Of a DNA stretch of 64,000 nt, positions 12,671 to 58,689 are shown piece after piece; the first letter of the stretch is position 1; each line of letters begins with the position of its first letter. This stretch comes from Candidatus Daviesbacteria bacterium (GTDB lineage: Bacteria; Patescibacteriota; Microgenomatia; Daviesbacterales; UBA10151), in assembly GCA_016184225.1 (NCBI GenBank), contig JACPDA010000004.1, positions 672,316-736,315 of the forward strand. The letters run 5' to 3'. The notes beneath the pieces are model-generated. The model had not been told where the DNA came from. It did not search any database and worked only from the letters and a program-made list of their open reading frames with translations. The position numbers and the translations under genes are program-made.

Positions 12671-14503
12671 TCAAGTGACCTTTTGCCAGCGGGATACCGG
12701 GGTTTTAACCAGGCCAAATTTCTGGCCCAAACGCAGTATTAAACTAAGCAATATGTAGTAGAACCTCCCGTGGTAATGCTTGGAAGCCTCTATTAAATGC
12801 TCATTGGCTTTTTCCTGGCCAATCTTTTTAGTGGATCCCCCATGGAAGTGAATGAATTTGGCAGAAGGGACAAAATAAATCGGCACCTTAAATCGTTTTA
12901 ATCTTCTGGCATATTCTATATCTTCAAAAAAGATAAATGTCCCTTCATCCAAAAGTCCTACTTTATTGATTATCCTTTTTGGAATTAATAAACAGGCCAT
13001 CACCAATCCTTCAACCCGCAACCACCTGGAAGGTGGGCTTTGACTCCTCCCAGGTGAAATCGGTTGAAACATAAAATACGCTCCTCGACGCGCCAAAAAG
13101 TATTCCTTAAACGCCCCGGTTAGAGTAGGCAAGTGAAACGCAGAATCCTGATTGCTTAAATCGGGAAACAGCAATTTCCCGCCCACAACAGCTTTACCCT
13201 GAAAATCTTCAGCCGTATCCAATAACTTTAAAATTCCTTTTTCTAAAACTTCTATATCTGAATTAAGCATCAGGTAATACTCACCCAGGGAGTACCTGAT
13301 AGTTTTGTTATATCCTTTGGAAAAACCTTCATTTTCACTATTCTGCAGGTATTTCAATTTAGGAAGAAACTCTTTGATCTTATCTCTGCAAGGATCAATC
13401 CGGCCGTTATCTAAAACTACAACCTCCATGTCATTCCGGCGAAAGCCGGAATCCATATCAAAAATGCTTTTTAAAAGTTTCCTGGTCAACTCCGGGGTAT
13501 TGTAATTAACAATGCCAATAGAAAGCTTAATCGGGTATTCAACATTGTGCTCACCTGGAAGGTGCAAACCTATCCCACCTTCCAGGTGGACTAGATTGAC
13601 ACCTCCTCTTATCCCTAAATAAAAATCCAACACCCCTCTTCGCTGGGCAGGCCTGCCGAAAATAAACAGTTTGATGGCTTCTCTAAGTAATGCAAACTTA
13701 GTGCGGATTCTACCATACTGAATTCCGAAGATCAGTCTATTCCGTGTGTGGTAGTAATCAGTAACAACGGAACCAATTCCGGTTGATTGGGAAACCTTAT
13801 GATAAAGGCTAACCTTACTATTGTAATAAATCTTAAATCCGGCCTCCGCAACCCTTTTTGCCAGATCACTATCTTCAAAATACAAAAAGTATTTCTCATC
13901 TAATCCTCCTAATTCCTCTAAGACCTCTTTTTTAATTAAAACGCAGGCCCCCGAGAAAATCCCGGCTTCTTCTCCGCCAGCTGGCGGATCATATTGCCCC
14001 TTATCTACCTCATCAATTCCCCGGTGTAATGAGCTGATATTATCCCAGTCAAACTTACCCCCGGCAAACCAAATCACTTTGCCCAAATCCTTACTTCCAT
14101 ACCTTTCTTTGTGAAATTCAAAACCAGGGGCAAAGTAAATCTTGGGGGAGACCAGACCAATTTTTGGATCGGATTTTAAAGTCTTTACAAGTTCTAAAAT
14201 CAAATCCGGATCTTTTATTAAACAATCATTATTTATCAGCAAAAAATAATCCGCCCCCCAGGCCTTTGCATAGTCCAAACCCCTGTTGAAACCGCCCGCA
14301 TACCCCAAATTTTCTCCGGTTTGTAAAACATCCACCTCAGGGAATGCCTTATGTACAGCAGAAACACTGCCATCCGTTGATGCATTGTCCACAACAATTA
14401 CCTGTAACCTGTAACCTGTAACCTGTAACCTCTTTAAAGACTCCAGAAAATCCAGTGTATCCTGCTTGCCGTTATAGTTAAGTGTAATAATTGCTACTTT
14501 CAT
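12671..14503 (-). CDS. tandem two-domain family 2 glycosyltransferase
   Basis: Two GT-A/GT2 modules (IITLNYNGKQDTLDFLESL...VVDNASTDGS and IGIVNYNTPELTRKLLKSI...VVLDNG), each with a DxD-like region. Confidence 0.8.
   Translation of the reverse strand: MKVAIITLNYNGKQDTLDFLESLKRLQVTGYRLQVIVVDNASTDGSVSAVHKAFPEVDVLQTGENLGYAGGFNRGLDYAKAWGADYFLLINNDCLIKDPDLILELVKTLKSDPKIGLVSPKIYFAPGFEFHKERYGSKDLGKVIWFAGGKFDWDNISSLHRGIDEVDKGQYDPPAGGEEAGIFSGACVLIKKEVLEELGGLDEKYFLYFEDSDLAKRVAEAGFKIYYNSKVSLYHKVSQSTGIGSVVTDYYHTRNRLIFGIQYGRIRTKFALLREAIKLFIFGRPAQRRGVLDFYLGIRGGVNLVHLEGGIGLHLPGEHNVEYPIKLSIGIVNYNTPELTRKLLKSIFDMDSGFRRNDMEVVVLDNGRIDPCRDKIKEFLPKLKYLQNSENEGFSKGYNKTIRYSLGEYYLMLNSDIEVLEKGILKLLDTAEDFQGKAVVGGKLLFPDLSNQDSAFHLPTLTGAFKEYFLARRGAYFMFQPISPGRSQSPPSRWLRVEGLVMACLLIPKRIINKVGLLDEGTFIFFEDIEYARRLKRFKVPIYFVPSAKFIHFHGGSTKKIGQEKANEHLIEASKHYHGRFYYILLSLILRLGQKFGLVKTPVSRWQKVT
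14399..14431. repeat. heptanucleotide tandem repeat (GGTTACA/CCTGTAA) x4 inside GT2 coding sequence
   Basis: acCTGTAACCTGTAACCTGTAACCTGTAACCtc encodes RLQVTGYRLQV in the N-terminal region of the GT2 gene. The same CTGTAACC motif recurs in the trmD insertion at 39510-39577. Confidence 0.85.
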
Positions 14504-21047: not shown

Positions 21048-21066
<19 letters not shown>

Positions 21067-21110
21067 GAGTCTAGTGAATTTCTAGATTCTAGACTCTAGC
21101 GACTAGACTC
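21048..21110. repeat. REP-like element, family E (AGTCAAGAGTCTAG...CTAGACTCTAGCGACTAG)
   Basis: Imperfect palindrome in the atpG-atpA intergenic space. Related copies at 23603, 35944 and 56525. Confidence 0.75.
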
Positions 21111-22732
21111 TATTTTTTGCCTCCCTTTGAAACCTTACTAAATATCCCTACAAACTCCTTTGTTACTTTCTCCAACTCTTTAGCCGTCTTTTCATCCAAT
21201 TCCTTTTTATCCGCTATCTCAGACAATAACTTCTTGTTGCGCAATTTTAGGTGGGCAATATATCTTTGTTCAAATTCACGCGCCTTTTCCACTTCGATCT
21301 CGTCTAAATACCCATTCGTGACTGCCCAAAGCGATACAACTTGTTCTTCAACCGGAACAGGGGAATAGGGAGGTTGCTTTAAAATCTCCGTGATTCTTTT
21401 GCCCCTTTCTATCTGTTGCTTGGTAGCCTGGTCCAAGTCAGAAGAAAATTGGGCAAAAGCTTGCAAAGCCCTAAATTGGGCCAAATCCAACCGGAGCCTA
21501 CCTGCTACCGTTTTCATGGCTTTTGTCTGGGCAGTACCACCAACCCGGGAAACCGATAAACCGACATTAACAGCCGGCCTAATTCCGGCAAAAAACAGGT
21601 CTCCCTCTAAATAAATTTGTCCGTCAGTAATGGAAATAACATTAGTCGGGATATAAGCAGAAACATCACCGGCCTGCGTCTCAATAATCGGCAAGGCAGT
21701 TAAAGACCCTCCCCCGAAGTCTTTGCTTAACTTGGCAGCCCGCTCCAAAAGCCTTGAGTGCAGGTAAAATACATCTCCCGGGTAAGCCTCCCTGCCGGAA
21801 GGCCGGCGCAGCAGCAAAGACATTTGTCGGTATGCCCAAGCATGTTTAGACAGATCATCATAAATTATCAGTGCATCTTTTCCCTGGTCCATGAAACACT
21901 CACCCATGGCACAACCGGCGTAAGGGGCCAGATACTGCATAGTAGCCGAATCCGAAGCAGAAGCTGAAACTATAATAGTGTGTTCCATTGCCCCAGCTTC
22001 TTCCAGTTTGGCCACCAACTGTGCCACTTTGGATATTTTCTGCCCGATTGCTACATAAATACAAATTACAGGAGAGCTTTCAGTCTTCAGACTCGCTTCG
22101 CTGTCAGCTTTCAGACTTTTTGAATCTGTCTGACGACTGACGACTGACGACTGACGACCTTGATTAATGATCGTATCTACCGCAATGGTGGTCTTACCGG
22201 TGTTTCTGTCACCGATAATCAGCTCCCTTTGCCCCCGGCCAATTGGGATCATGGCATCAATTGCTTTAATACCGGTCTGCAGGGGGGTATTGACACTTTG
22301 CCTGGTCACAACTCCGGGAGCAATCTTTTCCACAGGATAGCTTATCTTTGTCTTAACAGCACCTTTGCCGTCAATCGGATTACCCAGCGCATCAACTACC
22401 CGGCCAATCAAAGCTTCTCCTACAGGAACTTGTAAGATTTGACCGGTGGTTTTAACCTGATCACCTTCTTTAACTAAAGTAAAATCCCCAAAGATCACTG
22501 CTCCGACATTGTATTGTTCCAAGTTTAAGGCCAAGCCGAAAACTCCTTTCCCGAAGTCTAAAAGCTCCGAGTATTGGACATCTGATAGACCCTCAATCCT
22601 GGCCACACCATCACCAATCTCGGTCACGACACCAATGTTTTGCTTCTGAGCTTTTAATTTTAGTCCTTTAATTTGGTTCTCTATATCAGCAATAAGCGAA
22701 GCTTGCGAGCTACCGCTCTTTAAATTAGCCAC
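21110..22732 (-). CDS. atpA: F1 ATP synthase alpha subunit with ~27-aa in-frame insertion
   Basis: Walker A GDRNTGKT. The inserted segment [28 protein letters not shown] is encoded by a family-F REP at 22078-22160. Confidence 0.9.
22078..22160. repeat. REP-like element, family F (CAGTCTTCAGC...CTGACGACTGACGACTGACGAC) inside atpA
   Basis: Same architecture as the intergenic copies at 51110-51190 and 53003-53080. Here it is translated in-frame. Confidence 0.75.
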
Positions 22733-23117: not shown

Positions 23118-23620
23118 GACAAGTTTTTTACCTCTTTTTCTATGATTTCTTTCTGATCTTTTTTATTTAAAACCTTGCCAGTCACTTTTTCCATGGCTGA
23201 GACCACCACTTCTGCTACTTTACTCATCACTTCTTGCTCCATCCTGACACTTTCAGCCTGGACAGCTTCTTGGCCCTTTTTAATGATTTCCTGAGCCATC
23301 TTATCGGCTTTCTCTTTTGTTTCCTCAAGATACAACACTCTTTCTTTCTTTGATTCATCTATGATTTTTTGCGCTTCATCTGAGGCTCTACTAATCATTA
23401 CTTCTATTTTCTCATTGGTTTCCGATAATCTTTTTTCAATCTCTTCCGTATTCCTTAGGCTTTCTTCAATCTTTTTCTTTCGTTCTTCTAAAACTTTCAA
23501 AATTGGTTTATATAAAAACCTCTTTAAAATAAAAAGAAGTAAGAAAAAATTGACTACCTGCGCAGCCAAAAGTAACGGATTGATGCCAAATTGGTTTAAA
23601 ATTTCCATAATTAGAGTCAA
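23114..23620 (-). CDS. atpF: ATP synthase Fo subunit b
   Basis: N-terminal TM helix followed by a long charged coiled coil, in atp operon context. Confidence 0.8.
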   Translation of the reverse strand: MTLIMEILNQFGINPLLLAAQVVNFFLLLFILKRFLYKPILKVLEERKKKIEESLRNTEEIEKRLSETNEKIEVMISRASDEAQKIIDESKKERVLYLEETKEKADKMAQEIIKKGQEAVQAESVRMEQEVMSKVAEVVVSAMEKVTGKVLNKKDQKEIIEKEVKNLS

Positions 23621-23684
23621 GAGTCTAGAATCTAGAGTCTAGGAGAAAAATAAATACTTGACTCTCGACTCTAGTGACTAGACT

Positions 23685-23685
<1 letters not shown>
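23603..23685. repeat. REP-like element, family E
   Basis: GAGTCAAGAGTCTAGAATCTAGAGTCTAGGAGAAAAATAAATACTTGACTCTCGACTCTAGTGACTAGACTC. Near-identical to the copy at 56525-56598. Confidence 0.8.
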
Positions 23686-23906
<221 letters not shown>

Positions 23907-24762: not shown

Positions 24763-24800
24763 TTCCGATCCCGGATCGGTTATCTATTGACGATCCGGTA
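24763..24800. repeat. REP-like element, family A (upstream flank of RAYT copy 2)
   Basis: TTCCGATCCCGGATCGGTTATCTATTGACGATCCGGTAAA. About 90% identical to the intragenic copy at 28758-28798. Confidence 0.8.
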
Positions 24801-24821: not shown

Positions 24822-25493
24822 ATGGCTCTAAGAAAAACTATCTTAGCTACTGACCAAATCTATCACATATATAACCGTGGTGTGGAAAAAAGGCCAATAT
24901 TTTTAAATAGAAGGGGCTACAATAGATTTCTTCAAGTAATCAATTACTATCGTTTTGCTAACTGTCCCGTAAAATTTTCCCAATTTAAAGCATTATCCCA
25001 AGATTCAAGAAACGATTTATTAAACAAGCTCGAAATCCAGTCAGATAAACATGTTGAAATCCTGGCTTTCTGTCTTATGCCAAATCACATTCACTTTCTC
25101 TGTAAGCAATTAAAGGAAAAAGGTATTTCTAAGTTTATGGGCAAGTTAAGTAGCGGCTATAGCCATTACTTTAATACCATTAATCAAAGAGTAGGACCTC
25201 TATTTCAAGGAAATTTTAAGGCAGTCAGAATTGAGACAGATGAACAATTAGTGCATACTTCTCGCTACATACATCTAAACCCGGTTTCATCTTATCTAAT
25301 AGAATTTGATTCCCTGGAAAGCTACGAGTATTCTTCTTATCCCGAATATACCGGACGAAAAACAGGATTCTGCAACACAGAACAAGTCCTTTCTTATTTT
25401 AAGAGTATTAAAGCATACAAGGATTTTGTTGGTGACCAAGTGGACTATGCAAGAGAACTAGAAAATATCAAACATCTAATTCTGGAAGATTAA
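24822..25493 (+). CDS. RAYT-like HUH Y1 transposase, copy 2
   Basis: LMPNHIHFL HuH motif and TSRYIHLNP Tyr motif. Flanked on both sides by family-A REPs. Confidence 0.75.
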   Translation: MALRKTILATDQIYHIYNRGVEKRPIFLNRRGYNRFLQVINYYRFANCPVKFSQFKALSQDSRNDLLNKLEIQSDKHVEILAFCLMPNHIHFLCKQLKEKGISKFMGKLSSGYSHYFNTINQRVGPLFQGNFKAVRIETDEQLVHTSRYIHLNPVSSYLIEFDSLESYEYSSYPEYTGRKTGFCNTEQVLSYFKSIKAYKDFVGDQVDYARELENIKHLILED

Positions 25494-25525: not shown

Positions 25526-25545
25526 ATTCCGATCCCGGATCGGAG
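25526..25545. repeat. REP-like element, family A (downstream flank of RAYT copy 2)
   Basis: ATTCCGATCCCGGATCGGAG. Confidence 0.8.
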
Positions 25546-27883: not shown

Positions 27884-29035
27884 ATGACTAACGAGGAAAA
27901 ATTTAATTTAATAACCAGGAATTTAGAGGAAACTTTAACTGCAGAGGAGTTAAAAACTCTCATTAATTCTGGTACTCCATTAAAACATTATATCGGCTTT
28001 GAGATTTCCGGAAAAGGTCACATGGGCTGGGTTTTTACAATGCAGAAAATTAAAGATCTGCAGGATGCCGGGGTAGAAATAAACATCCTGCTGGCAGATT
28101 GGCATACCTGGCTTAATAAAAAATTAGATGGAACCTTAGAAACAGCTAAAAAAATGGCCAGGGGATATTTTGAGGAGGCTCTCAAGGCTTGTGTTTTATC
28201 TGCCGGATCAGATCCGGAAAAGATTAATTTTGTCTTAGGCAGTGAACTTTATGAAAAACTTGGTAACGATTACTGGGCCAAAGTAATTAAAGTTGCCAAA
28301 GCTACAACCCTTGCCAGAATGATCAGGTCAACTACCATTATGGGCAGAAAAGAGTCTGAGCTCTCTGACACAGCTATGTTAATTTATCCTGCCATGCAGT
28401 CAGCAGATATTTTTGCCTTAGGAGTTAATATTGCACACGCGGGAACGGATCAGAGAAATGTCCATGTGGTAGCCAGGGAAGCTGCTGCCCAGTTAGGAGA
28501 ACAAAAGCCGATCGCAATCCATCATCATTTGCTGCAAGGCCTGATGCAGCCGGTTTTTACAGAAGACGAAAGAGGAAATAAAATCCTGGATTTGGAAGCG
28601 GCAAAAATGAGCAAATCAAAACCGGACAGCGCAGTGTTTATCCATGACAGCCCGGATGAAATTAAAAGAAAAGTGGGTAATGCCTTTTGCCCGGAAGGGG
28701 AAGTGGAATTTAACCCCATCTTGGACTGGATCAAACATTTAATTTTTTACAATACATCCTTCCGATCCGGGATCGGAATAGATTTGCGATCCGGTAAAGA
28801 TAATGCAATCTTCACCGTGAAGCGTAATCCAAAATGGGGAAGGGATCTGGTTTACAATTCTTATGAAGAATTAGAAAAAGATTATGCGGAGAAAAAATTG
28901 CATCCGATGGATTTAAAAGTAGCTGTAGCAGAATGGCTGATTAAAAAATTAGAACCGGCCAGAAAATACTTTGAAGATCCAAAAAGAAAAGCTGCTTTGG
29001 AAGAGATTGAGAGACTAACTACAAAATTGACCTAA
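27884..29035 (+). CDS. tyrS: tyrosine--tRNA ligase, archaeal/eukaryotic type, with in-frame REP insertion
   Basis: HIGH-region variant YIGFEISGKGHMGW...ILLADWHTWLN matches the archaeal TyrRS pattern (YIGFEPSGKIHLGH...ILLADLHAYLN), plus KMSKS. Extra segment SFRSGIGIDLRSGKD is encoded by the REP at 28758-28798. Confidence 0.75.
   Translation: MTNEEKFNLITRNLEETLTAEELKTLINSGTPLKHYIGFEISGKGHMGWVFTMQKIKDLQDAGVEINILLADWHTWLNKKLDGTLETAKKMARGYFEEALKACVLSAGSDPEKINFVLGSELYEKLGNDYWAKVIKVAKATTLARMIRSTTIMGRKESELSDTAMLIYPAMQSADIFALGVNIAHAGTDQRNVHVVAREAAAQLGEQKPIAIHHHLLQGLMQPVFTEDERGNKILDLEAAKMSKSKPDSAVFIHDSPDEIKRKVGNAFCPEGEVEFNPILDWIKHLIFYNTSFRSGIGIDLRSGKDNAIFTVKRNPKWGRDLVYNSYEELEKDYAEKKLHPMDLKVAVAEWLIKKLEPARKYFEDPKRKAALEEIERLTTKLT
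28758..28798. repeat. REP-like element, family A, inside tyrS coding sequence
   Basis: CCTTCCGATCCGGGATCGGAATAGATTTGCGATCCGGTAAAG is in-frame and collinear with the copy at 24763-24800. Confidence 0.8.
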
Positions 29036-29040
29036 TTAAC

Positions 29041-29479
29041 CTAATTTCTAATTGACCTAAAGAATGACTAATGACAAAATTACCAAAAAATTTGATCTGG
29101 AAGACAGAACTGCTAAATTTGGAGAAGGTGTGATTAAATTGTGTCAGAAGATACCGAGAGGACCTATTACTGATCCACTAATTACACAACTGGTGAAATG
29201 TGGTACCAGCGTAGGAGCTAATTACTCCGAGGCAGATGATGCGGAAAGCAGAATGGATTTTAAACATAAGATCGGGATCTGTAAGAAGGAAACTAGGGAA
29301 GCTAAACATTTTATCAGGATGATTGTGGTTGCTGTATCGGTTTTAAAAGAAGAAGCCAAACCGTTGTGGCAGGAAGCTAAAGAATTAAACTTGATATTTA
29401 ACTCTATTTATAAGAAAGTAAAGTAGGCGGATGATTTTAGACATTTGGTCATTGAGATTTGATTAGAAATTAAAAATTA
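29041..29479. repeat. perfect 13-bp inverted repeat pair (CTAATTTCTAATT ... AATTAGAAATTAG) bracketing the four-helix-bundle gene
   Basis: Left arm 29041-29054 and right arm 29467-29479. Additional CCTAATT/AATTAGAAATT direct iterations on both sides. Confidence 0.6.
29064..29426 (+). CDS. four-helix-bundle protein (23S rRNA intervening-sequence protein family, TIGR02436-like)
   Basis: Size and the characteristic pattern FGEGVIKLCQKIP...QLVKCGTSVGANYSEA...EAKHFIRM. Confidence 0.75.
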   Translation: MTNDKITKKFDLEDRTAKFGEGVIKLCQKIPRGPITDPLITQLVKCGTSVGANYSEADDAESRMDFKHKIGICKKETREAKHFIRMIVVAVSVLKEEAKPLWQEAKELNLIFNSIYKKVK

Positions 29480-29591
29480 GAAATTAGAAATTTATCGTAT
29501 TATGATGTACTCAAAGAAATTTAAAATTTTCTGGATAATTTTATCCGTAATTGCCGGGATAGCCATTATCCTTTTTTCTCTTTTGCCCCTC

Positions 29592-29933
29592 TTAACCAGT
29601 TTCTGAAAGTGATCCTGCTTGGGCTTTTTCTTTCTCGTACTCTGCCAAAAATCCGATGGCAAAATCATCCAGGAATTTTTGGGTTTCTTCAGCTGCGCTT
29701 CTGCCAGTTCTTAAATTATAAAGCATTTTAATTTTCTCATTGGCTGACTCCTGATCAGGGCAAGCTTCAATTGCCTGCATATCTTCTTCTGTAAAACTAG
29801 CCATACCAGCGGTATAAATTCTGGCAAAGGCAGATTTGGTGAGTTCTGTTAAAAATTGGCTAACCTGCTCGTCTGTCGAACCCTTCTCTTTCATAACATC
29901 CACCACTTTTTGCATTTTAGTTTTTTCGTCCAT
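29592..29933 (-). CDS. hypothetical acidic protein (113 aa)
   Basis: ORF co-directional and adjacent (5-nt gap) to the 645-aa ORF. No family recognised. Confidence 0.4.
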   Translation of the reverse strand: MDEKTKMQKVVDVMKEKGSTDEQVSQFLTELTKSAFARIYTAGMASFTEEDMQAIEACPDQESANEKIKMLYNLRTGRSAAEETQKFLDDFAIGFLAEYEKEKAQAGSLSETG

Positions 29934-34890: not shown

Positions 34891-36975
34891 ATGGAACTTA
34901 AAACCCCGCTTTCTGCTCTTACCGGCATTGGATCCGGGCTTTTATATAAGCTGAAAAGGCTTAACTTAAATACTGTAGAGGATTTGATTTATCATTTTCC
35001 CTTTAGGTATGATGATTTTTCCAATGCCACCTCTGCCCTGGATGCCAAAATAGGGGAGAATGTAACCCTGCAGGGGGAGATTTGGTCCATCCAAAATATC
35101 TATACCAGGTCCAGGAAAATCATTACCAAAGCTATCTTTAATGACGGCACCTCGCCCATAGAGCTCACCTGGTTTAACTCTTCCTGGCTGATCAAGCAGA
35201 TCCAGACAGGTGACAGGCTACAGGTTTCAGGCAAAATCAGTAAATACAAATCCAAATTATCAATTATTGCCCCGCGCTGGGAAAAACTGAATAGCTTTCA
35301 GTCATCAGCTATCAGTCATCAGACTTTGCACACAGGAAGGTTAGTTCCTGTTTATCCTGAAACAGATGGCTTAAGTTCTAAATGGCTTAGGACCAAAATA
35401 GACAAGCTGCTGCCGGAAGTAATAGATCAAATTAGTGATCCTCTACCTGATCAAATCCGGGATAACATGATGCCGCTTAATGATTCCATACAACAAGTAC
35501 ATTTCCCGAAAACTCTAGAACAGGCAGAAAAAGCCCGGGAAAGGTTAGGCTTTGATGAGCTGTTTTATGTCTCTTTGGCCACCCAAAAAGCCAGGGCAGA
35601 GTGGAAGAAAAAACCAATTGTTGAACCATTAAAAATTAATCCTGCAGATATCAGAGATTTTGTGGGTAAACTTCCCTTTAAATTGACCGGCGCCCAAGAA
35701 AAAGTCTTAACGGAAATTCTGGATGACCTGAAGAAAAAACAACCCATGAACAGGTTAGTCCAGGGAGAAGTAGGCTCCGGGAAAACAGTGGTAGCCGCCA
35801 TTATTGCCTATTTGGTCCATAAAAATAACCTGCGTACCTTGTTTATGGCCCCCACGGAAATTCTGGCCTTCCAACACTTTGAAACTCTTTCCAAACTCCT
35901 CGAACCATTCGGGGTCAAAGTGGGAATATACACAGGAAGTAAGAAGAGTCTAGAGTCAAGAGTCAAGAGTCAAGGGAAGAAACAATCTAGACTCTCGACT
36001 CTAGCGACTAGCCACTATCCCGATATAATCATCGGCACCCATGCCCTTTTGTCCCAAAAACTTTCCACCGACAATGTCGGACTAATCATCATTGACGAGC
36101 AACAGCGTTTTGGGGTCGAGCAAAGAACACTTTTGCGGGGAAAAGCCAAAATTCCGCATTTCCTGACCATGACAGCCACCCCCATCCCCAGGACAGTAGC
36201 CCTAACCTTGTACGGTGATCTGGATATGTCAGTCATTGATGAGATGCCGGTGGGAAGACAAAGGGTCAAAACCTATGTAGTACCCGAAAAAAAGCGGCTT
36301 GATTCATATAAATTTATTGCCAAAAGGGTAGCTGAAGGAGACCAGATTTATATCATCACCCCCTTAATAGAAGCATCCGAGACCCTAGTCAGCGTCAAAG
36401 CAGCCAAAGTAGAGTTTGAGAAACTAAAGAAGGTTTTTCCTTCTCTTAATCTGGACCTGCTTCATGGCAGAATGAAAGGAGTTGATAAAGATCAGATAGT
36501 CAAGGATTTTCGCTCCGGCAAAACCCAGATTCTGGTTTCCACCTCTGTGGTAGAAGTGGGCATGGATAACCCTAATGCCACCATTATTGTCATTGAAGGC
36601 GCAGAACGATTCGGCCTGGCCCAGCTTCACCAACTTCGAGGAAGAGTTGGCAGAGGAGAAAAGCAGTCTTATTGCCTGCTTTATACATCAAATTATTCAA
36701 GCGATGAAAGAAGAAGATTGAAATACCTGGAAACTACTTTTGATGGTTTGAAACTGGCTGAGCTGGATTTAAAGATCCGGGGCAGCGGGCAAATTTTTGG
36801 GACTTTGCAGTCAGGCAGATTTGAGTTCAAGATAGCGAGCTTCCATAATATCACACTCCTGGAGAAAACCAAGCAGGCAGCCAAAGATCTGTTGGACTCT
36901 GATCCCGCTCTTGACAAACACCCGCTGCTCAAGGCAAAATTACAGGATATCTCATCAGCAGTGATGCCTGACTGA
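34891..36975 (+). CDS. recG: ATP-dependent DNA helicase RecG with in-frame REP insertion
   Basis: Wedge-domain N-terminus, helicase motifs (GEVGSGKT, DEQQRFG, TATPIPRT, QLRGRVGRG). Extra segment SKKSLESRVKSQGKKQSRLSTLATS is encoded by the family-E REP at 35944-36012. Confidence 0.9.
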   Translation: MELKTPLSALTGIGSGLLYKLKRLNLNTVEDLIYHFPFRYDDFSNATSALDAKIGENVTLQGEIWSIQNIYTRSRKIITKAIFNDGTSPIELTWFNSSWLIKQIQTGDRLQVSGKISKYKSKLSIIAPRWEKLNSFQSSAISHQTLHTGRLVPVYPETDGLSSKWLRTKIDKLLPEVIDQISDPLPDQIRDNMMPLNDSIQQVHFPKTLEQAEKARERLGFDELFYVSLATQKARAEWKKKPIVEPLKINPADIRDFVGKLPFKLTGAQEKVLTEILDDLKKKQPMNRLVQGEVGSGKTVVAAIIAYLVHKNNLRTLFMAPTEILAFQHFETLSKLLEPFGVKVGIYTGSKKSLESRVKSQGKKQSRLSTLATSHYPDIIIGTHALLSQKLSTDNVGLIIIDEQQRFGVEQRTLLRGKAKIPHFLTMTATPIPRTVALTLYGDLDMSVIDEMPVGRQRVKTYVVPEKKRLDSYKFIAKRVAEGDQIYIITPLIEASETLVSVKAAKVEFEKLKKVFPSLNLDLLHGRMKGVDKDQIVKDFRSGKTQILVSTSVVEVGMDNPNATIIVIEGAERFGLAQLHQLRGRVGRGEKQSYCLLYTSNYSSDERRRLKYLETTFDGLKLAELDLKIRGSGQIFGTLQSGRFEFKIASFHNITLLEKTKQAAKDLLDSDPALDKHPLLKAKLQDISSAVMPD
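35944..36012. repeat. REP-like element, family E, inside recG
   Basis: AGAGTCTAGAGTCAAGAGTCAAGAGTCAAGGGAAGAAACAATCTAGACTCTCGACTCTAGCGACTAG. Confidence 0.8.
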
Positions 36976-36984: not shown

Positions 36985-37179
36985 ATGGCTGGTGAACCAA
37001 AACGAAGACATTCCAAAGCACGAAAAAGAACACGCAGGGCTGCAATTAAATTAGCAGTTAACTTGGTCAATTGTAAAAACTGCGGCAAGCTGACTTTGCC
37101 CCACATTGTTTGTAAAGAGTGTGGATTTTACGGCGGCAAGGCTGTTGCAAAAGAAAAAGTCCAGGTTGTTAAAGCATGA
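36985..37179 (+). CDS. rpmF: 50S ribosomal protein L32 (zinc-ribbon type)
   Basis: N-terminal PKRRHSKARKRTRRA and a CxxC...CxxC zinc ribbon. Confidence 0.8.
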   Translation: MAGEPKRRHSKARKRTRRAAIKLAVNLVNCKNCGKLTLPHIVCKECGFYGGKAVAKEKVQVVKA

Positions 37180-37541
37180 AGAGAAAATCTGACCCAAGGC
37201 ACCTAAAAAGAGTTGCTATCATGCAGGATCTGTTCTCCTGGCAATTTAAGAAAACCCAAAAGGTTACTCTTAAGATTCGCCCGATCGTTGCCAGACTTCC
37301 CAAAATCGACAAACTGATCAAGAAATCTGCCCCTGACCGGCCTATCTCTGAAATCAACAGAATTGATTTAGCTATCTTGCGTCTGGCAGTTTTTGAGATT
37401 ATATTAAATAAAGGGGTTCCCCCGAAGGTCGCCATTGATGAAGCAATAGAGTTAGGTAAAGAGTATGGCTCAGACTCATCTGCAAGTTTTATTAATGGGG
37501 CTTTGGGAAAACTCTTAGAAATGGAAGATATTCAAACATGA
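37176..37541 (+). CDS. nusB: transcription antitermination factor NusB-like
   Basis: The C-terminal region AIDEAIELGKEYGSDSSASFINGALGKL matches the NusB signature. Confidence 0.65.
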   Translation: MKRKSDPRHLKRVAIMQDLFSWQFKKTQKVTLKIRPIVARLPKIDKLIKKSAPDRPISEINRIDLAILRLAVFEIILNKGVPPKVAIDEAIELGKEYGSDSSASFINGALGKLLEMEDIQT

Positions 37542-37774
37542 ATCAGGAAGGAGAAATTCTCCAGGCTATAGCGGATCATTTGGGTCTTTCTGTGGAAGAC
37601 TTGGACCGCAATAGCTTGTTGAAAGAAGAACTGAATTTAGGTCTCATTGAACTAAATGACTTACTTTCCGATTTATCGCAGAAGTTTGACGTTAGCTTAA
37701 GTCCGGAAGAAATAGAAGATTTAAAAAAAGTAAACGATATAATTGTTCTTATCGAAGATAATTTATTAGACTAA
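37538..37774 (+). CDS. acyl-carrier-protein-like small acidic protein lacking the conserved phosphopantetheine Ser
   Basis: ACP-like size and helical pattern (LSVEDLDRNSLLKEELNLGLIELNDLL). The DSL serine is replaced. Confidence 0.35.
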   Translation: MNQEGEILQAIADHLGLSVEDLDRNSLLKEELNLGLIELNDLLSDLSQKFDVSLSPEEIEDLKKVNDIIVLIEDNLLD

Positions 37775-38463
37775 TGCCAAACAATGATTTTACACAGCTT
37801 CTCAGTTTACTTGATATAAGATTTAAAAAACCAAAACTTTTGCAACAAGCTTTTTTACACAGATCCTACTTAAATGAAGTTAAAATAGACACTCCATCAA
37901 ACGAGCGTTTGGAATTCCTGGGTGATTCGGTCCTTTCTCTGGTAATCTCTTATTACCTCTACACTTTAAGACCGACGGATTCCGAGGGTGAGTTAACCAA
38001 CCTCAGGGCTCATCTGGTAAAGACAAAATCTTTGGCAGAAGCTGCAGGCAACCTAAAGTTAGGAAACTACTTGAAACTCTCAAGAGGAGAAGAAATTTCC
38101 GGAGGAAGGAACAATCCGCAACTTCTGGCAAATACCTATGAAGCTTTACTAGGAGCTGCTTTTTTAGACCAAGGACTGGAGGCGGCCAAAAAGGTTATAG
38201 ACAAAACACTGTTGCCTCTTTTTGAAAAAGAGCTAAAGTTAGGACCGCCAAAAGATGCAAAATCTAATCTGCAGGAGGTGGTTCAACAAAGATTAAAACA
38301 GTCTCCTCGTTACAGAATTTTAGCAACCACCGGGCCGGATCATGCCAAACAATTTAGCGTAGCAGTATTCGTAGGCGGAAAAGAAATGGGGCGAGGCTTG
38401 GGAGCCAGCAAACAAATTGCCGAAGAGGAAGCAGCCAGACAGGCTCTTTCGCAGTTGACTTAA
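37774..38463 (+). CDS. rnc: ribonuclease III
   Basis: ERLEFLGDSVL signature and a C-terminal dsRBD. Confidence 0.9.
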   Translation: MPNNDFTQLLSLLDIRFKKPKLLQQAFLHRSYLNEVKIDTPSNERLEFLGDSVLSLVISYYLYTLRPTDSEGELTNLRAHLVKTKSLAEAAGNLKLGNYLKLSRGEEISGGRNNPQLLANTYEALLGAAFLDQGLEAAKKVIDKTLLPLFEKELKLGPPKDAKSNLQEVVQQRLKQSPRYRILATTGPDHAKQFSVAVFVGGKEMGRGLGASKQIAEEEAARQALSQLT

Positions 38464-39293: not shown

Positions 39294-40001
39294 ATGAAAT
39301 TTTCCATCATTACTTTATTCCCGGAAGTCTTTGAACCTATACTGAATTCCTCAATCCTGAAACGGGCCCAAAAAAAGGGGCTAGTAGAATTTGAGCTGAT
39401 TAACCTGCGCGGTTTTGGTAAAGGCAGACACCAGGTAGTTGACGGCAGGCCCTATGGCGGTGGAGCAGGAATGGTTTTACGGACAGACATACTGGCCAAA
39501 GCAGTCAGGAAGGTTACAGGGAACAGTAGACAGGTTACAGATCAGAAACTAAAACCTGTAACCTGTAACCTGAAAACTATCCTTATGTCTGCTTCCGGGA
39601 CACCTTACAAACAGGCAAAGGCACATGAGTTTTCCAAGTTAAAACACCTAATCATTGTTTGCGGACATTATGAAGGAGTAGACCAACGGTTTATCGACAA
39701 ATATGTAGATGGCGAGATTTCCATTGGGGATTATGTCCTGACAGGAGGAGAGATCCCGGCCATGGTAATTGTCGATTCTATCACCAGGCTGATTCCGGGA
39801 GTCCTGGAAAAACCGGAAGCTACTATCAATGAGTCCTTCTCCGAGGGCCTGCTTGAGCATCCTCAATATACCAGGCCGGCAGGCTTTGAGGGAAAAAAAG
39901 TGCCTGAAGTCTTGTTGTCCGGAAATCATGCCGAAATAAAAAAATGGCGTTTAAAAAAATCCCTGGAAAAAACCAAAAAAATCAGGCCTGACCTGTTATA
40001 A
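39294..40001 (+). CDS. trmD: tRNA (guanine37-N1)-methyltransferase TrmD with ~22-aa in-frame hairpin insertion
   Basis: SPOUT/TrmD motifs (GRPYGGGAGMVL, LIIVCGHYEGVDQRF, YVLTGGEIPAMV). Extra segment KVTGNSRQVTDQKLKPVTCNLK at 39510-39577. Confidence 0.9.
   Translation: MKFSIITLFPEVFEPILNSSILKRAQKKGLVEFELINLRGFGKGRHQVVDGRPYGGGAGMVLRTDILAKAVRKVTGNSRQVTDQKLKPVTCNLKTILMSASGTPYKQAKAHEFSKLKHLIIVCGHYEGVDQRFIDKYVDGEISIGDYVLTGGEIPAMVIVDSITRLIPGVLEKPEATINESFSEGLLEHPQYTRPAGFEGKKVPEVLLSGNHAEIKKWRLKKSLEKTKKIRPDLL
39510..39577. repeat. inverted-repeat element (AGGTTACAG x2 ... CTGTAACCT x2) inside trmD
   Basis: AAGGTTACAGGGAACAGTAGACAGGTTACAGATCAGAAACTAAAACCTGTAACCTGTAACCTG. Shares the GGTTACAG unit with the heptamer tract at 14399-14431. 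Confidence 0.75.
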
Positions 40002-43079: not shown

Positions 43080-43127
43080 TAAAATTATTTTAGAACAAAC
43101 TATACCCTAAACGCTATACCCTAAACC

Positions 43128-44939
43128 CTACTTAACTTGGTAAGTTCCTTTCACCAGTGAATATGATCCTGAAGGGCCGGAAGTAAACATGGTGCTGGTC
43201 AAGCCGGTTTCATAATCTATCACCGAGTTATTAATTAGCTTGATCTTCCAAGCTGTTAATTCTTTAAAGGAGTTGCCCGTACCGGGCTGGATAATACCAG
43301 TACTGGCATAATAAACTCCCGTGTTGCCATTACTATTTACCTCTATTGCCGACTCATCATTAGTTCTTGAATCAAAAGTAGTTAAAACCATCAACAAGCT
43401 GCTGCCTGTCCCCGTACCATTCAGATGGTTATTGCTATTTAACTCAACCTTCCCGTCCACTATAATTACTCCTGATGTTGCTCCGTAGCTTGTATCAAGT
43501 GTTAATCTGTTATTACTATTTAGTATCAGATCACCGGTTATCCAAATAGGGGTCTTTATACTCACCCGGCACCCGCTATTAAAAGTGACATTGCCGATAA
43601 TTTTTTGGGAATTGAGGCTGCTGACACAACTGCTTATATTGCCTGTACTCTGACCATTTTCCTCTGCAATTTGCTTCCAACTGGCGACGTTGGCATCGGA
43701 AATTGGGAAAACTTTCGGTGGCGGATCGGCAGAACCCGGGTAAGAGGTCCCTCCTACGGTTGAACTGATGATTGTTTGGTAGTAGGCATCTTGACCAATA
43801 ATTAAATTTTCAATTATATTGGCATGGATTTCTCCTCCCACAGTCATTTTATTGCTGCCGGCTCTCACTGACGTAGGCGATCCGCCCAGAAAGGACTTAA
43901 AACTTAAGTCTCCCGGAGGGTTAAGTAAATTCCAGGTGGGGTTTCCGGTTGACCAATTGGGAGACCACCTGGGCAGCCCCCTGGAGTAACTTTGGGCCAA
44001 ATCAGATTGCCAGGACCAGTAATTGGTATTATCAGAGGGGGTATCAATCATTAGCCAGTAAGTGGTATTTGCTTGTATCTGAGGGGAGGAATTAAAGGCG
44101 ACATCAATCCACCCATAAGAAGAAGTCACTAAACTGCTGTAAAGCGTGCCTTGCGCCAAAACACCGTTTTTATCAGGCGCGCCGTCTTTATCTTGCATGA
44201 TTCTCACTGTAGCATCCGGTGGATTGCCTATCTTTTTTATCTTGATGGAAGCCTTATTTAATAAGCCATCTGCGGCAGGTTTTAGGCTTTGGGCAACGTC
44301 AAACCGATCCTCACCGCTCACTGTTTTACCAAAAGTAAAGTCCTGGCAGTTGCTATCCGTGCAGTCTGTTTCCTGGTCAGACTCCGGTTCCGGCCCGCCG
44401 GCTACCCAAACATCCCCGGTGATTTGGTTACTGTTTTCGGCAGTGATGTTGCCATTTGAATAAATGGACCCTTCCACTATATTACTATTGCCCAATTCCA
44501 GGCCGCCGTCTCCTACTTGCAGTCCGTATACAAAGGCTACGCCCACCCCCGCTGTTGACTTGATACTGATTGTTCTTTTGGCCCTGGCTGCTGTTTTATT
44601 GGGGATATAGCCGGTTGATTGGATAACCTTGACTCCGGCATCCTGGGAAATAATGGTAACAGAATAAGATCCCTCACCAAAAGTGGTTTCCGTTTCTCCT
44701 GTGTAGCCTCCGCCCGTCCTGTTTAGGGAATTTAGCGCCTTATCCACCCCGGCTTCAGCTAAGGCTGTGGCGGCTTCTGCCTCAGCTGCATACTGGGCAT
44801 TTTGATAATAAATTTGCGCCCCGGCAATCACCGATAAAACGGTAAACAACACCACGCCCAAGGCAACAATAACCACTACCACAATCTGTCCCTTTTCCTC
44901 TAATTTAATCATTGCGTAAATTTGCCTCCGAAGTAGCAA
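43128..44939 (-). CDS. large pilus-associated protein (N-terminal hydrophobic helix, beta-rich Asn/Gly/Ser/Thr C-terminal domain), possible tip adhesin
   Basis: Position at the head of the pseudopilin block. N-terminal TM segment and repetitive beta-helix-like NSNN/TGxG stretches. No family recognised. Confidence 0.35.
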   Translation of the reverse strand: MLLRRQIYAMIKLEEKGQIVVVVIVALGVVLFTVLSVIAGAQIYYQNAQYAAEAEAATALAEAGVDKALNSLNRTGGGYTGETETTFGEGSYSVTIISQDAGVKVIQSTGYIPNKTAARAKRTISIKSTAGVGVAFVYGLQVGDGGLELGNSNIVEGSIYSNGNITAENSNQITGDVWVAGGPEPESDQETDCTDSNCQDFTFGKTVSGEDRFDVAQSLKPAADGLLNKASIKIKKIGNPPDATVRIMQDKDGAPDKNGVLAQGTLYSSLVTSSYGWIDVAFNSSPQIQANTTYWLMIDTPSDNTNYWSWQSDLAQSYSRGLPRWSPNWSTGNPTWNLLNPPGDLSFKSFLGGSPTSVRAGSNKMTVGGEIHANIIENLIIGQDAYYQTIISSTVGGTSYPGSADPPPKVFPISDANVASWKQIAEENGQSTGNISSCVSSLNSQKIIGNVTFNSGCRVSIKTPIWITGDLILNSNNRLTLDTSYGATSGVIIVDGKVELNSNNHLNGTGTGSSLLMVLTTFDSRTNDESAIEVNSNGNTGVYYASTGIIQPGTGNSFKELTAWKIKLINNSVIDYETGLTSTMFTSGPSGSYSLVKGTYQVK

Positions 44940-48350: not shown

Positions 48351-48392
48351 TAATTGTACATTGTAAATTTTACATTGTACATTCCCTATGGC
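48351..48392. promoter_or_regulatory. AT-rich near-palindrome (TGTACAATGTAAAATTTACAATGTACA) immediately upstream of a pilin start codon; candidate operator/promoter element
   Basis: TACATTGTA units in inverted arrangement begin 5 nt upstream of the ATG at 48346. Confidence 0.35.
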
Positions 48393-51110: not shown

Positions 51111-51190
51111 AGCTTTCAGTCTTCAGCTTTCAGCTATCAGACTTTTAATTACAACAATCTGACGACTGATGACTGACTGCTGATGGCTAC
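51110..51190. repeat. REP-like element, family F (intergenic pilA-pilD)
   Basis: AGCTTTCAGTCTTCAGCTTTCAGCTATCAGACTTTTAATTACAACAATCTGACGACTGATGACTGACTGCTGATGG. Confidence 0.8.
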
Positions 51191-53002: not shown

Positions 53003-53080
53003 ATAGTCGTCAGTCTTCAGCTATCAGCTGTCAGACTTTCTTGTGATTATCTGACGACTGACGTCTGATGACTGATAGCT
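53003..53080. repeat. REP-like element, family F (intergenic pilT-pilC)
   Basis: TCGTCAGTCTTCAGCTATCAGCTGTCAGACTTTCTTGTGATTATCTGACGACTGACGTCTGATGACTGATAGC. Confidence 0.8.

Positions 53081-56524: not shown

Positions 56525-56550
<26 letters not shown>
55873..56550 (+). CDS. DNA polymerase III delta'-like clamp-loader subunit, short form lacking P-loop, with in-frame REP insertion
   Basis: LLKTLEEPP and TILSRCK boxes. Extra segment LASHITRGLIAQGSGNT is encoded by the family-G REP at 55936-55990. Confidence 0.6.
55936..55990. repeat. REP-like element, family G, inside holB-like gene
   Basis: CTAGCTTCCCACATCACACGTGGGCTAATCGCCCAAGGAAGTGGGAATACAAATC. Confidence 0.75.

Positions 56551-58689
<2,139 letters not shown>

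Follow-up and report, generated by a model that had tools for sequence, protein, structure and literature searches.

The small gene that follows tyrS in the 64-kb window (the whole stretch of DNA that was analysed) is carried by a 475-bp selfish cassette that is related to the intervening sequences (IVSs) of 23S rRNA and is found, together with gene-less miniature copies, across many phyla. The cassette is an IVS-type mobile element outside rRNA, and it consists of a left repeat array, a PF05635 gene, a spacer of about 35 nt, an inverted array and an 8-nt A/T-rich tail (29494-29501), in that order (Table 1). A mobile cassette with repeat arrays as its ends is very likely. As an explanation of the whole, a selfish IVS-type cassette of ~475 bp outside rRNA, with the arrays as ends, is the best one and is probably correct, and the mechanism in which the encoded protein and the arrays would form an RNP and a hairpin is put forward tentatively, by analogy.

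The cassette gene and its terminal arrays

The sole open reading frame of the full-length cassette encodes a PF05635 protein of 120 aa, and no transposase is present. An earlier note on this DNA had assigned the gene to the rRNA intervening-sequence family, and this assignment is confirmed by profile matches above the curated cut-offs (PF05635, 42.5 bits with a cut-off of 33.8; TIGR02436, 62.3 bits with a cut-off of 24). In addition, residues 12-119 match the solved chain 2rld of the PDB (E 9e-12), an entry with five chains, and the fold and the pentameric assembly of the protein are putative, by homology to this chain. The helix-2 motif of the family, published as GxxRxxxSxxxNxxE (PMC3936711), is present as K45xxxS49xxxN53xxE56, which fits [RK]xxxSxxxNxxE. 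Q42 and E79 do not vary in alignment A1, and S49, N53 and E56 hardly vary. No known catalytic motif was found in the protein; R63-x4-H68 resembles the Rx4-6H motif of HEPN-like RNases, a candidate that was rejected because divergent members of the family do not retain H68. Purifying selection on the ORF is strong in all copies, with dN/dS values of 0.03-0.1, while dS is at or near saturation (at least 1 in all relatives except one, with 0.99), and the cores of the repeats are conserved despite these saturated synonymous sites. With an intact ORF and such dN/dS values, the earlier suggestion of a remnant is not supported. No Shine-Dalgarno sequence precedes the gene, and consensus scans of the element revealed no terminator and no promoter of its own (six promoter-like sites versus 5.4 expected, which is at chance level). 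A second PF05635 gene was not detected in the window by tblastn.

The left array reads TTGACCTAA TTAACCTAA TTTCTAA TTGACCTAA, with three to four tandem CTAATT units separated by 1 or 3 nt, and it ends 3 nt before the ATG of the PF05635 gene; this organization is conserved in about 80 related loci. The right array (ATTAGAA ATTAAAA ATTAGAA ATTAGAA ATTT) is its inverted counterpart and is also conserved in the family. The spacer between the gene and the right array could form a stem with codons 2-8 of the ORF. The arrays contain a perfect 13-bp inverted repeat, formed by CTAATTTCTAATT and its exact reverse complement AATTAGAAATTAG. This pair had been noticed before, but with its right arm at 29467-29479, which is 8 nt away from the true position, 29475-29487; the further repeat iterations reported on both sides are real and correspond to the two arrays.

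A coincidental pairing within an A/T-rich, low-complexity intergenic region is already refuted and has a negligible probability. In the 64-kb window, the exact 13-mer occurs in the two arms and nowhere else; when up to two mismatches are allowed, eight matches are found versus 4.4 expected, five of them inside the element. When a 363-bp "gene" was placed at random in the window, a flanking inverted repeat of at least 13 bp arose in 0 of 3000 trials (maximum 12 bp), and of the 76 ORFs with 100 aa or more the PF05635 gene alone has such a repeat. The retention of the arrays in about 80 loci also speaks against coincidence. The 13-bp repeat is present because both arrays are built from the same conserved unit, and the selected feature is not the 13-bp pairing as such.

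Table 1. Positions of the cassette, its parts and the two adjoining host genes in the window.
Feature	Position	Strand	Description
Host gene tyrS (TyrRS, 383 aa)	27884..29035	+	PF00579, 143.8 bits
Left terminal array	29025..29060	+	Four units, core CTAA(TT), spaced 9, 9, 7, 9 nt
Whole inserted cassette, 475 bp	29027..29501	+	Delimited against empty sites; boundary +/- 1-2 nt
Left arm of perfect 13-bp inverted repeat	29041..29053	+	Repeat search
PF05635 / TIGR02436 four-helix-bundle gene, 120 aa	29064..29426	+	Profile matches, 363-bp ORF
Conserved 3' spacer, ~35 nt	29427..29461	+	..TTTAGACATTTGGTCATTGAGATTTG; kept in gene-less derivatives
Right terminal array	29462..29493	+	Four to five AATTAG/AATTAA units, 7-nt spacing, AATTT end
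Right arm of perfect 13-bp inverted repeat	29475..29487	+	Repeat search
Host small membrane protein, 34 aa	29502..29606	+	MMYSKKFKIFWIILSV...; ORF conserved after tyrS or element

Empty, filled and gene-less junctions

Multiple relatives have the tyrS junction without the cassette. In these empty sites, tyrS ends with ...ACA AAA TGA and its TGA overlaps the ATG of the next gene (ATGA). Because the stop codon of tyrS overlaps the start of the small gene in this way, the bounds of the insert can be set at 29027-29501. The comparison shows that the cassette went precisely into the junction at which the stop and start codons overlap, and the ATGA overlap looks like the ancestral state. In the window, the last codons of tyrS, TTG ACC TAA (29027-29035), come from the first repeat unit of the cassette. 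Empty tyrS/small-ORF junctions ("ACAAAATGATGTAYTC") are found in L086, L096, L105, L111, L127 and L131/L140, and the small membrane-protein ORF follows tyrS directly in the first five of these and in L131; in L011, L014 and L087 it follows the element. Filled tyrS junctions are found at five distinct loci (the window, L014, L011=L129, L017/L106 and L126), and one relative carries a gene-less version of ~105 bp at this junction. The filled states are scattered over the TyrRS tree beside empty sisters: L129 is placed with L086, L106 with L105, and L126 among the empty L127 and L131. The eight closest relatives of the cassette (81-88% aa identity) are not adjacent to tyrS.

Homologous genes with the same inverted arrays were found at about 80 loci, drawn from species-representative genomes of many phyla. 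They share 65-88% aa identity, are located in unrelated gene contexts, and their hosts belong to Patescibacteria, Ignavibacteria, Bacteroidota and Caldithrix. The arrays of the family contain three units and one partial unit per side, with a spacing of 7 or 9 nt, and in the family alignment the information content is ~0 immediately outside AAATT...AATTT. Other sites of the cassette are the rpmI/rplT and pheS/pheT junctions, secretion-like operons, and cas and cmr operons. The cassette is almost always sense-oriented and sits tight against the upstream stop codon in operon junctions. The upstream neighbour is co-directional with the gene in 66 of 72 cases, and in 47 of 69 the upstream stop falls between -13 and +5 nt relative to the first unit; the downstream neighbour is co-directional in 52 of 69, and in 29 of these 52 the first start codon of the downstream ORF is 0-27 nt past the array. 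A search of IMG/VR with peptide patterns of the 120-aa protein, aimed at phage carriage, resulted in no relatives. Since the cassette recurs in many unrelated contexts and across phyla, it has evidently been mobile on an evolutionary time scale. The earlier description as a "mobile or invertible cassette" is thus borne out for its first part by the presence and absence at an orthologous site and by the many contexts and phyla.

Gene-less copies of ~100-140 bp were identified in L010, L038, L039, L058 (three), L059, L073 (two) and L087. Such copies are common; they retain the arrays and the spacer only, sit in operon junctions and form hairpins in which the arrays pair unit by unit (z -2.3 to -6.2). 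Copies within one genome share 71-84% nt identity and therefore show no sign of recent transposition. This age, together with the saturated dS, would also fit a stationary, vertically inherited host gene that became patchy by repeated loss and whose arrays are operator or translation-control sites, as would the left array abutting the start codon, which would suit autoregulation. This explanation is improbable and for the most part already refuted by the comparison of empty with filled junctions: the host genes overlap by ATGA in the empty sites, a sharp-ended cassette with 65-88% aa identity is present in unrelated junctions and several phyla, the closest relatives have different contexts, and the gene-less derivatives are dispersed.

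The inverted repeat around the gene could also be read as the crossover sites of an invertible switch, which was the second part of the earlier proposal, and nothing other than the repeat itself speaks for this. The element has the same orientation in two independent assemblies of identical sequence, and all five tyrS-linked filled loci are co-oriented with tyrS, in line with the co-directional upstream neighbours of the family. In addition, each arm is a 13-bp stretch of A/T-rich repeat, and profile scans of the genes around the cassette revealed no site-specific recombinase. Inversion is therefore very improbable and that part of the proposal is not upheld.

Predicted array pairing and comparison with known elements

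A panhandle is predicted for the transcript by the MFE fold as well as by the centroid fold. It includes the 13-bp repeat and the pairing of further units, spans the stop codon of tyrS and stops 9 nt short of the downstream ATG; the whole-element fold is weakly better than shuffles (z -1.7). Left and right arrays of the same locus do not pair better than non-self combinations (longest run 13.3 versus 13.4, permutation p 0.68; duplex energy -23.7 versus -25.4 kcal/mol), and the inner stem between the 5' part of the ORF and the 3' spacer shows no excess of covariation either (p 0.43). Pairing is therefore not demonstrably selected, and a selected RNA helix is not claimed here. A target-site duplication of 2-5 nt was searched for at any boundary offset in 67 elements and none stands out, with the best case at 16 of 67 versus 6.6 expected among 900 tests. 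The cassette would thus move without target duplication and therefore probably not by classical DDE transposition.

IVSs with an S23p ORF are present in the 23S rRNA of Leptospira as well as in that of other bacteria, are located in helix 25 or 45 and are co-transcribed with the rRNA. In Coxiella burnetii, the IVS has heptamers (GACAGAT) upstream of the ORF and a 28-bp stem, and is cut by RNase III (PMC4990558). The 23S IVS of the Azospirillum lipoferum plasmid AZO_p2 (L168), a true rRNA IVS with inverted heptamer arrays of its own, has GACAGAG/GACGGAT heptamers upstream of the ATG. The cassette shares with these IVSs the protein family, the element size of ~430-480 nt, stem-capable terminal inverted repeats that bracket the ORF, tandem heptamers directly before the ATG, the sense orientation in the host transcript and a ribosome-binding site that is weak or missing; both the terminal complementary stem sequences and the tandem-heptamer-preceded S23p ORF that characterize an IVS are thus present. 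The cassette differs in being located between protein genes instead of in an rRNA helix, in its "beaded" stem with 6-bp cores compared with a near-perfect 28-bp helix, and in an ORF under strong purifying selection, whereas the ORF of Coxiella is decaying. The window contains no rRNA, and the element lies between tyrS and the small ORF and not in a 23S helix. An rRNA motif scan of the 80 loci of this subfamily resulted in no rRNA-hosted copy (its only match, in L015, is not rRNA), and Rfam gave nothing on five loci.

Avd, the accessory protein of diversity-generating retroelements, is a pentameric four-helix bundle that binds a specific stem-loop encoded beside its own gene (PMC10053308), and all five protomers contact the imperfect RNA stem-loop, with flipped-out bases between protomers (10.1101/2023.10.23.563531). 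The cassette protein is a homologous four-helix-bundle protein, and the similarity of the window copy to Avd is at the family level only. No reverse transcriptase was detected near the cassette when the genes between 18.7 and 38.5 kb were scanned with Pfam, and for a template/variable repeat pair around the gene only short direct repeats at chance level were found. By analogy with Avd, a pentamer of the cassette protein may sit on the "beaded" stem, in which 6-bp helices alternate with unpaired spacer bases, and the arrays would be both the cis-acting ends of the cassette and the cognate binding sites of its own protein. In the transcript, the two arrays may pair and thereby rejoin the stop codon and the downstream start codon of the host genes; RNase III may, in addition, cleave the array stem, as it does in rRNA IVSs. 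The pairing or the cutting could each explain why the insertion is tolerated inside operons. A gene for RNase III is present in the window (37774-38463).

Several families of dispersed repeats also resemble the cassette. REPIN-RAYT systems consist of a small gene flanked by cognate repeats, with a separate repeat family for each gene subfamily, and of many gene-less hairpin doublets just past stop codons; they lack target duplications and persist for a long time without recent bursts, and they have an HUH/Y1 transposase and single palindromes of ~20-35 nt. The combination of a gene with cognate repeats, the gene-less hairpin copies and the absence of target duplication are shared with the cassette. 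The cassette differs in that its flanked gene encodes a four-helix-bundle protein (PF05635) and not an HUH/Y1 tyrosine transposase, in that its ends are arrays of 7-9-nt units, and in that the gene-bearing unit is found in many contexts and phyla. The window also contains a RAYT-like gene (24822-25493), which has its own REPs, CCGATCCCGGATCGG. Correia/nemis elements, which are RNase III substrates, and ERIC elements are bacterial MITEs within transcripts, with ~100-150-bp hairpin copies that have terminal inverted repeats (TIRs) and lie near stop codons. They resemble the gene-less copies in size, TIRs, hairpins in mRNA and location in operon junctions, but the cassette has no TA or other target duplication, no transposase in the full-length partner and arrays as ends. 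Characteristics of TIR/MITE elements that were observed are the terminal inverted repeats, the presence/absence polymorphism and miniature derivatives with internal deletions.

Subfamily-specific units and heptamer arrays

Each PF05635 subfamily has its own repeat unit, which follows the subfamily and not the host genome. L066, L070 and L072 each contain two or three subfamilies, every one with its own unit (GAATCTT is one of those in L066), and the same unit accompanies the same subfamily across phyla. Proteins that are at least 72% identical share units, such as GGGAA[AC]A in L164/L172, CTTCTGC in L166/L169/L176/L177 and CAGGAGT in L174/L175. Divergent PF05635 genes also have heptamer arrays of their own, as was observed for most of 15 cyanobacterial plasmid genes examined. 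The flanking arrays are direct and not inverted in Pseudanabaena (L165) and Gemmatirosa (L167), and relative L163 has no arrays at all. Besides the cassette, the window contains about 20 further heptamer arrays without any PF05635 gene, among them arrays of TAGAGTC, CTGACGA and ACAGGTT units, so that the arrays may be part of a system that is wider than the PF05635 cassette.

These additional arrays would also fit an enzyme of the host or of another element that acts in trans on the arrays as ends (a single-strand HUH/Y1 transposase, a recombinase or an Avd-partner reverse transcriptase), with the four-helix-bundle gene as cargo unrelated to the repeats. The absence of target-site duplication combined with hairpin-forming ends, as in IS200/IS605 and REPIN elements, points in the same direction, as do the gene-less copies that locally outnumber the gene-bearing ones, the lack of a catalytic motif in the protein and the RAYT-like Y1 transposase gene at a distance of 3.5 kb. 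However, the repeat unit tracks the PF05635 subfamily and not the host, and purifying selection acts strongly on the ORF in every copy; both speak against this reading. On both sides of the RAYT-like gene lies a cognate palindrome of its own, which is different from and unrelated to the heptamer arrays; the gene was therefore rejected as the mobiliser and is kept solely as a rival of low probability. A trans-acting enzyme in general is considered unlikely, though well short of implausible, and the arrays are preferably read as ends that belong to the cassette and its own protein.

Heptamer repeats without an explanation have been described in other bacteria: TAACTGA intergenic repeats in Beggiatoaceae, cyanobacteria and Bacteroidetes (PMC4679880), and GGGAATC and GGGGA(C/T)T repeats in Xanthomonas and Nostoc (PMC4692102). 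Like the arrays studied here, these are intergenic arrays of 2-16 tandem 7-nt units, often just upstream of start codons without a Shine-Dalgarno sequence, with a patchy phylogenetic distribution. The terms "S23", "four helix", "intervening" and "23S" are absent from both papers, and a connection of the repeats with PF05635 genes, or with inverted arrays that are paired and have defined ends, is therefore made in neither. A search of a literature library with few subscription journals found no link between PF05635 and heptamer arrays beyond the Coxiella IVS, and earlier reports are possible. As a speculative extension, which has a modest chance of being correct, PF05635 pentamers would be sequence-specific partners of tandem heptamer arrays, and the gene and arrays together would be an unrecognised class of transposase-less autonomous mobile elements, in the form of protein-bound hairpins, with MITE-like gene-less copies.

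How rRNA IVSs arose and spread, and what their conserved ORF does, has been debated without an answer since about 1990. The PF05635 "four helix bundle protein" genes, which are repeatedly noted in cas, restriction and other operons, rank with the most common small genes of bacteria that lack an explanation. This locus and its relatives supply a precise anatomy, exact empty and filled sites, gene-less derivatives and the rule that the unit follows the subfamily. Questions that are now testable are the binding of the pentamer to the repeats, the translational coupling restored by the stem or the recruitment of RNase III, and what moves the element. The cassette changes the C-termini of housekeeping proteins (here TyrRS gains Leu-Thr) and splits overlapping gene pairs, and such cassettes could explain many "simple repeats" in the genomes of Patescibacteria and cyanobacteria. 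If the extended proposal is true, one class would unite rRNA IVSs with the "four helix bundle protein" genes that are lodged in CRISPR, restriction and housekeeping operons and with the intergenic heptamer repeats, long unexplained, of cyanobacteria, Xanthomonas, Beggiatoaceae and Patescibacteria.

Anatomy and conservation of the cassette

A perfect 13-bp inverted repeat had been reported around the 363-bp four-helix-bundle gene, and it is real: when a gap of the gene's size was placed at random 3000 times in the window, not once did an inverted repeat of at least 13 bp flank it, and the gene is the only one of 76 window ORFs of at least 100 aa with a repeat of such length. The right arm had been positioned 8 nt off in the earlier note. 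The exact 13-mer, CTAATTTCTAATT, has no copy in the 64-kb window beyond the two arms, so the concern that it might be common genome-wide does not hold inside the window. The additional repeat iterations on both sides were also found, each arm being a piece of a tandem array (core CTAATT on the left, AATTAG on the right). The predicted protein matches PF05635 (23S_rRNA_IVP, 42.5 bits) and TIGR02436 ('four helix bundle protein', 62.3 bits), both profiles identifying it as a family member, and the solved chain 2rld is a homolog (E 9e-12). An identical protein is recorded in NCBI under Candidatus Daviesbacteria (Patescibacteria, Microgenomates), the source of the window.

Positions of features, in window coordinates unless a locus (L-number) is given
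Feature	Position	Details
Insert	29027-29501
Left array	29025-29060	TTGACCTAA TTAACCTAA TTTCTAA TTGACCTAA
Left arm	29041-29053	CTAATTTCTAATT
PF05635 ORF	29064-29426	363 bp
Right array	29462-29493	ATTAGAA ATTAAAA ATTAGAA ATTAGAA ATTT
Right arm	29475-29487	exact reverse complement of left arm
Membrane-protein gene	29502-29606	downstream of insert
RNase III gene	37774-38463 (+)	PF14622, PF00636, dsrm
nusB	37176-37541	adjoins RNase III gene
RAYT-like Y1 (IS200-like) transposase gene	24822-25493 (+)	PF01797 E 1e-10
TyrRS in-frame insertion	28751-28795	15 aa, NTSFRSGIGIDLRSG
Other copies of its palindrome	24765-24779, 25529-25543, 1343-1357	CCGATCC(G/C)GGATCGG
[AT]AGAGTC ... GACTCT[ACT] elements	21052-21120, 23612-23690, 35944-36020, 56540-56600	inverted arrays, no PF05635 gene
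TCAG...CTGA arrays	22100-22158, 51111-51185, 53020-53075, 35293-35322	e.g. CTGACGA, four perfect copies
More period-7 arrays	14400-14431, 39520-39572, 43100-43130, 48353-48383, 58417-58475, 60327-60356	units ACCTGTA (4.6 perfect copies), inverted pair ACAGGTT/AACCTGT, CTAAACC, ATTGTAC, CAACAGA, AATTTTC
Array at divergent PF05635 gene	L066:4330	GAATCTT/GTATCTT, mirrored over ~37 bp
Array at divergent PF05635 gene	L066:5515	AATTATCAATT, perfect 31-bp repeat
Arrays at divergent PF05635 genes	L070:5280, L135:900, L052:2522, L072:1258	own unit each
Very divergent PF05635 gene	L039 4420-4773	25% identity, no arrays of its own

One genome per species was scanned, which gave 270 stretches encoding relatives; the best 80 of these (65-88% aa identity) were compared. 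They come from Daviesbacteria and other Microgenomates (Levy-, Curtiss-, Gottesman- and Roizmanbacteria), from Uhr-, Berkel-, Moran- and Staskawiczbacteria, and from Ignavibacterium, Melioribacteraceae, Caldithrix, Bacteroidota and Eisenbacteria. Window-type flanks are present in virtually all of the 80. The shared upstream flank reads (A)AATT[AG]ACCTAATT..TCTAATT..CCTAAAnA-ATG; downstream, a conserved spacer (..TTAGACATTGG..TTGGGATTTG) is followed by AATTAG units ending in AGAAATT(T). Each side typically holds three full units and one partial unit, spaced 7 or 9 nt. Conservation falls to background directly outside AAATT...AATTT, indicating that the element has sharp ends.

The 13-bp arm match of the window is the median of the cassette family. 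The longest Watson-Crick run between own left and right arrays was 13.3, compared with 13.4 for arrays of different elements (permutation p 0.68), and own pairs gave no better RNA duplex energy than non-self pairs (-23.7 vs -25.4 kcal/mol). Since own arrays match no better than foreign ones, the inverted repeat is a by-product of one conserved unit building both arrays in opposite orientation.

The dN/dS of the cassette gene is 0.03-0.1, and selection maintains the protein. Even against the closest of the best 80 of 270 relatives, dS is at or near 1, and copies sharing a genome have 71-84% nucleotide identity, which together indicate that the cassettes are old. The non-coding CTAATT cores are conserved far above neutral expectation, which points to sequence-specific recognition rather than mere pairing.

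Insertion, placement and derivatives

Orthologous junctions were gathered by a metagenome scan with TyrRS. In the empty junctions (L086, L096, L105, L111, L127 and L131/L140), the stop codon of tyrS and the start codon of a conserved gene for a 34-aa membrane protein overlap (...ACA AAA TGA / ATG ATG TAY TC...). In the filled junctions (the window, L014, L011=L129, L017/L106 and L126), the cassette sits precisely between the two genes, and tyrS runs into the first unit and terminates on its TAA, by which Leu-Thr is added to the window TyrRS. The bounds of the insert follow from this comparison. A gene-less version of ~105 bp, with arrays and spacer only, occupies the junction in L087. No target-site duplication of 2-5 nt is detectable at the cassette boundaries, which argues against DDE transposition. 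Filled sites are scattered on the TyrRS tree with empty sisters (L129 with L086, L106 with L105, and L126 among L127 and L131), indicating that the cassette was gained or lost at least four times at this one junction. None of the eight closest relatives of the window cassette (81-88% aa; among the best 80 of 270) lies beside tyrS.

Cassette placement is strongly non-random. The upstream neighbour is co-directional with the cassette gene in 66 of 72 loci; its stop codon is TAA in 49/69 and falls within -13..+5 nt of the first unit in 47/69. The downstream neighbour is co-directional in 52/69, and in 29 of these 52 cases its ORF has the first start codon 0-27 nt past the array. Full copies separate pheS-like from pheT-like genes and occupy consecutive junctions in a secretion-like operon, and the rpmI / rplT junction has a gene-less copy. 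This agrees with a published PF05635-type gene between cmr3 and cmr2 (PMC3936711) and with the plasmid placements found: cas6|cas4 (twice), cmr2|cmr3 and nrdB|nrdA (antisense). The cas6-cas4 genes are those of Pseudanabaena galeata plasmid pPg_01 (L165) and Anabaena sp. 90 pANA02 (L171); in Nostoc edaphicum plasmid pNe_5 (L162), ribonucleotide reductase beta and alpha genes flank the cassette, which is on the opposite strand.

The fetched loci contain 11 elements of ~100-140 bp without the gene, three of them with one full copy inside 8 kb in L058. They retain the two arrays, a few codons from the start of the gene and the 3' spacer, resembling MITEs derived by internal deletion, and their folds are 'beaded' hairpins that pair unit by unit (z -2.3 to -6.2). 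By eye, going by where the TTGGGATTT spacer lies, all 11 have the orientation of full-length copies. The cassettes in L003, L004, L005, L023, L035, L054, L056 and L061 are compound: an array and the gene are followed by a second left array, the spacer and the right array. In L039, the very divergent PF05635 gene has the right array of one CTAATT-type cassette on one side and a gene-less CTAATT element on the other.

Arrays across PF05635 genes and elsewhere in the window

Divergent PF05635 genes in the fetched loci bear arrays of their own. In L066, three subfamilies lie side by side with three different units, so the repeat unit follows the gene and not the host. Among 15 PF05635 genes of cyanobacterial plasmids, 13 have heptamer arrays on both sides, one has an array downstream only (L177) and one has none on either side (L163). 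Their units include TAGGGAG, GGGTGTA, GGGAACA, GGAGATA, CAGGAGT and CTTCTGC, and are common to proteins at least 72% identical and different in more distant ones. The arrays are inverted in most of these, but direct in Pseudanabaena L165. Gemmatirosa L167 likewise has direct arrays. L165 has at least 14 AAAGCTA copies upstream and 10 AAAGCCA downstream, and L162 about nine TAGGGAG/TGGGGAG heptamers upstream and five CTCCCTA downstream. The plasmids of Nostoc sp. ATCC 53789 (L174) and N. punctiforme (L175) encode proteins 97.5% identical in the same context, with about 5 and 8 copies, respectively, in the upstream CAGGAGT/CAGAAGT array, indicating that slippage changes array length on short time scales.

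A true 23S rRNA IVS is present in Azospirillum lipoferum (L168), where the Rfam LSU match spans the gene. Its inverted heptamers, GACAGAG/GACGGAT, are close to GACAGAT of the Coxiella IVS, in which such repeats lie upstream of the S23p ORF and a 28-bp terminal stem is cut by RNase III (PMC4990558). PF05635 ORFs are also held by rRNA insertions of Patescibacteria (10.1101/2024.02.27.582315).

The window also has about 20 further period-7 arrays with no PF05635 gene; several form inverted pairs at operon junctions within the ATP-synthase cluster. These may represent gene-less forms of other families; just as plausibly, heptamer arrays may belong to a wider system, with ends recognised by a trans-acting enzyme and four-helix-bundle genes as passengers. 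The nearby RAYT-like transposase has a different palindrome of its own on both sides, which makes it an unlikely mobiliser. Among tandem repeats in ~0.96 Mb of fetched loci, mostly Patescibacteria, period 7 predominates by a wide margin (297 arrays, vs 44 with period 6 and 71 with period 8).

Two of the [AT]AGAGTC elements lie in ATP-synthase junctions (atpG|atpA and upstream of atpF) and one forms an in-frame readthrough inside recG; relative to flanking genes, the copy at 23612 is oriented oppositely to the one at 56540. The TCAG...CTGA arrays, a third family, occur where genes meet and also, apparently in frame, within atpA and recG. The RAYT-like gene scores 55.8 bits against NF047646 ('REP-associated tyrosine transposase'), under the cut-off of 80, and has identical 17-nt copies of TTCCGATCCCGGATCGG on both sides. 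None of the 12 homologs that the alignment displays has the TyrRS insertion, whose coding sequence is the palindrome that also flanks the RAYT-like gene, indicating an in-frame REP element insertion.

Proposed mechanism and relation to known systems

The arrays would be the cis-acting ends of the cassette and, by analogy, may be cognate sites of its own pentameric protein. In the complex of diversity-generating retroelements (DGRs), all five protomers of the homologous four-helix-bundle protein Avd contact one imperfect RNA stem-loop, with flipped-out bases in crevices between protomers (10.1101/2023.10.23.563531). A stem of 6-bp CUAAUU/AAUUAG helices with 1-3 unpaired spacer bases, in ~4-5 units, would similarly present the same motif to each protomer. 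In the modelled transcript, this stem would bring the tyrS stop, inside the outermost helix, within ~9 nt of the downstream ATG, mimicking the original ATGA overlap. Alternatively, RNase III may remove the stem, as in rRNA IVSs; with either route, the insertion would be tolerated. The window holds an RNase III gene, so the enzyme required by IVS-like processing is encoded in the host genome. The cassette ORF has no ribosome-binding site and lies 28 nt past the host stop codon, and is thus probably translated by coupling to the upstream gene. Several results speak against this model: no covariation was found between left and right arrays (own vs foreign pairs) or in the inner stem, the whole-element fold is only marginal (z -1.7), a few relatives have direct arrays, the cassette protein has no catalytic motif, and the window has the ~20 arrays without a PF05635 gene.

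The cassette would work like an rRNA IVS but lacks the defining location in rRNA; it is like a MITE with its parent transposon but has neither transposase nor target duplication, and like REPIN-RAYT but without an HUH enzyme. A DGR was rejected, as no reverse transcriptase is among the genes scanned between 18.7 and 38.5 kb. The two papers that describe heptamer repeats of intergenic regions (PMC4679880, PMC4692102) say nothing of PF05635 genes, and no description of the cassette was found in the searchable literature; much subscription literature lies outside this search, and novelty is provisional. The cassette is, on this provisional footing, a new IVS-type selfish element outside rRNA, with arrays as its ends and with miniature derivatives.
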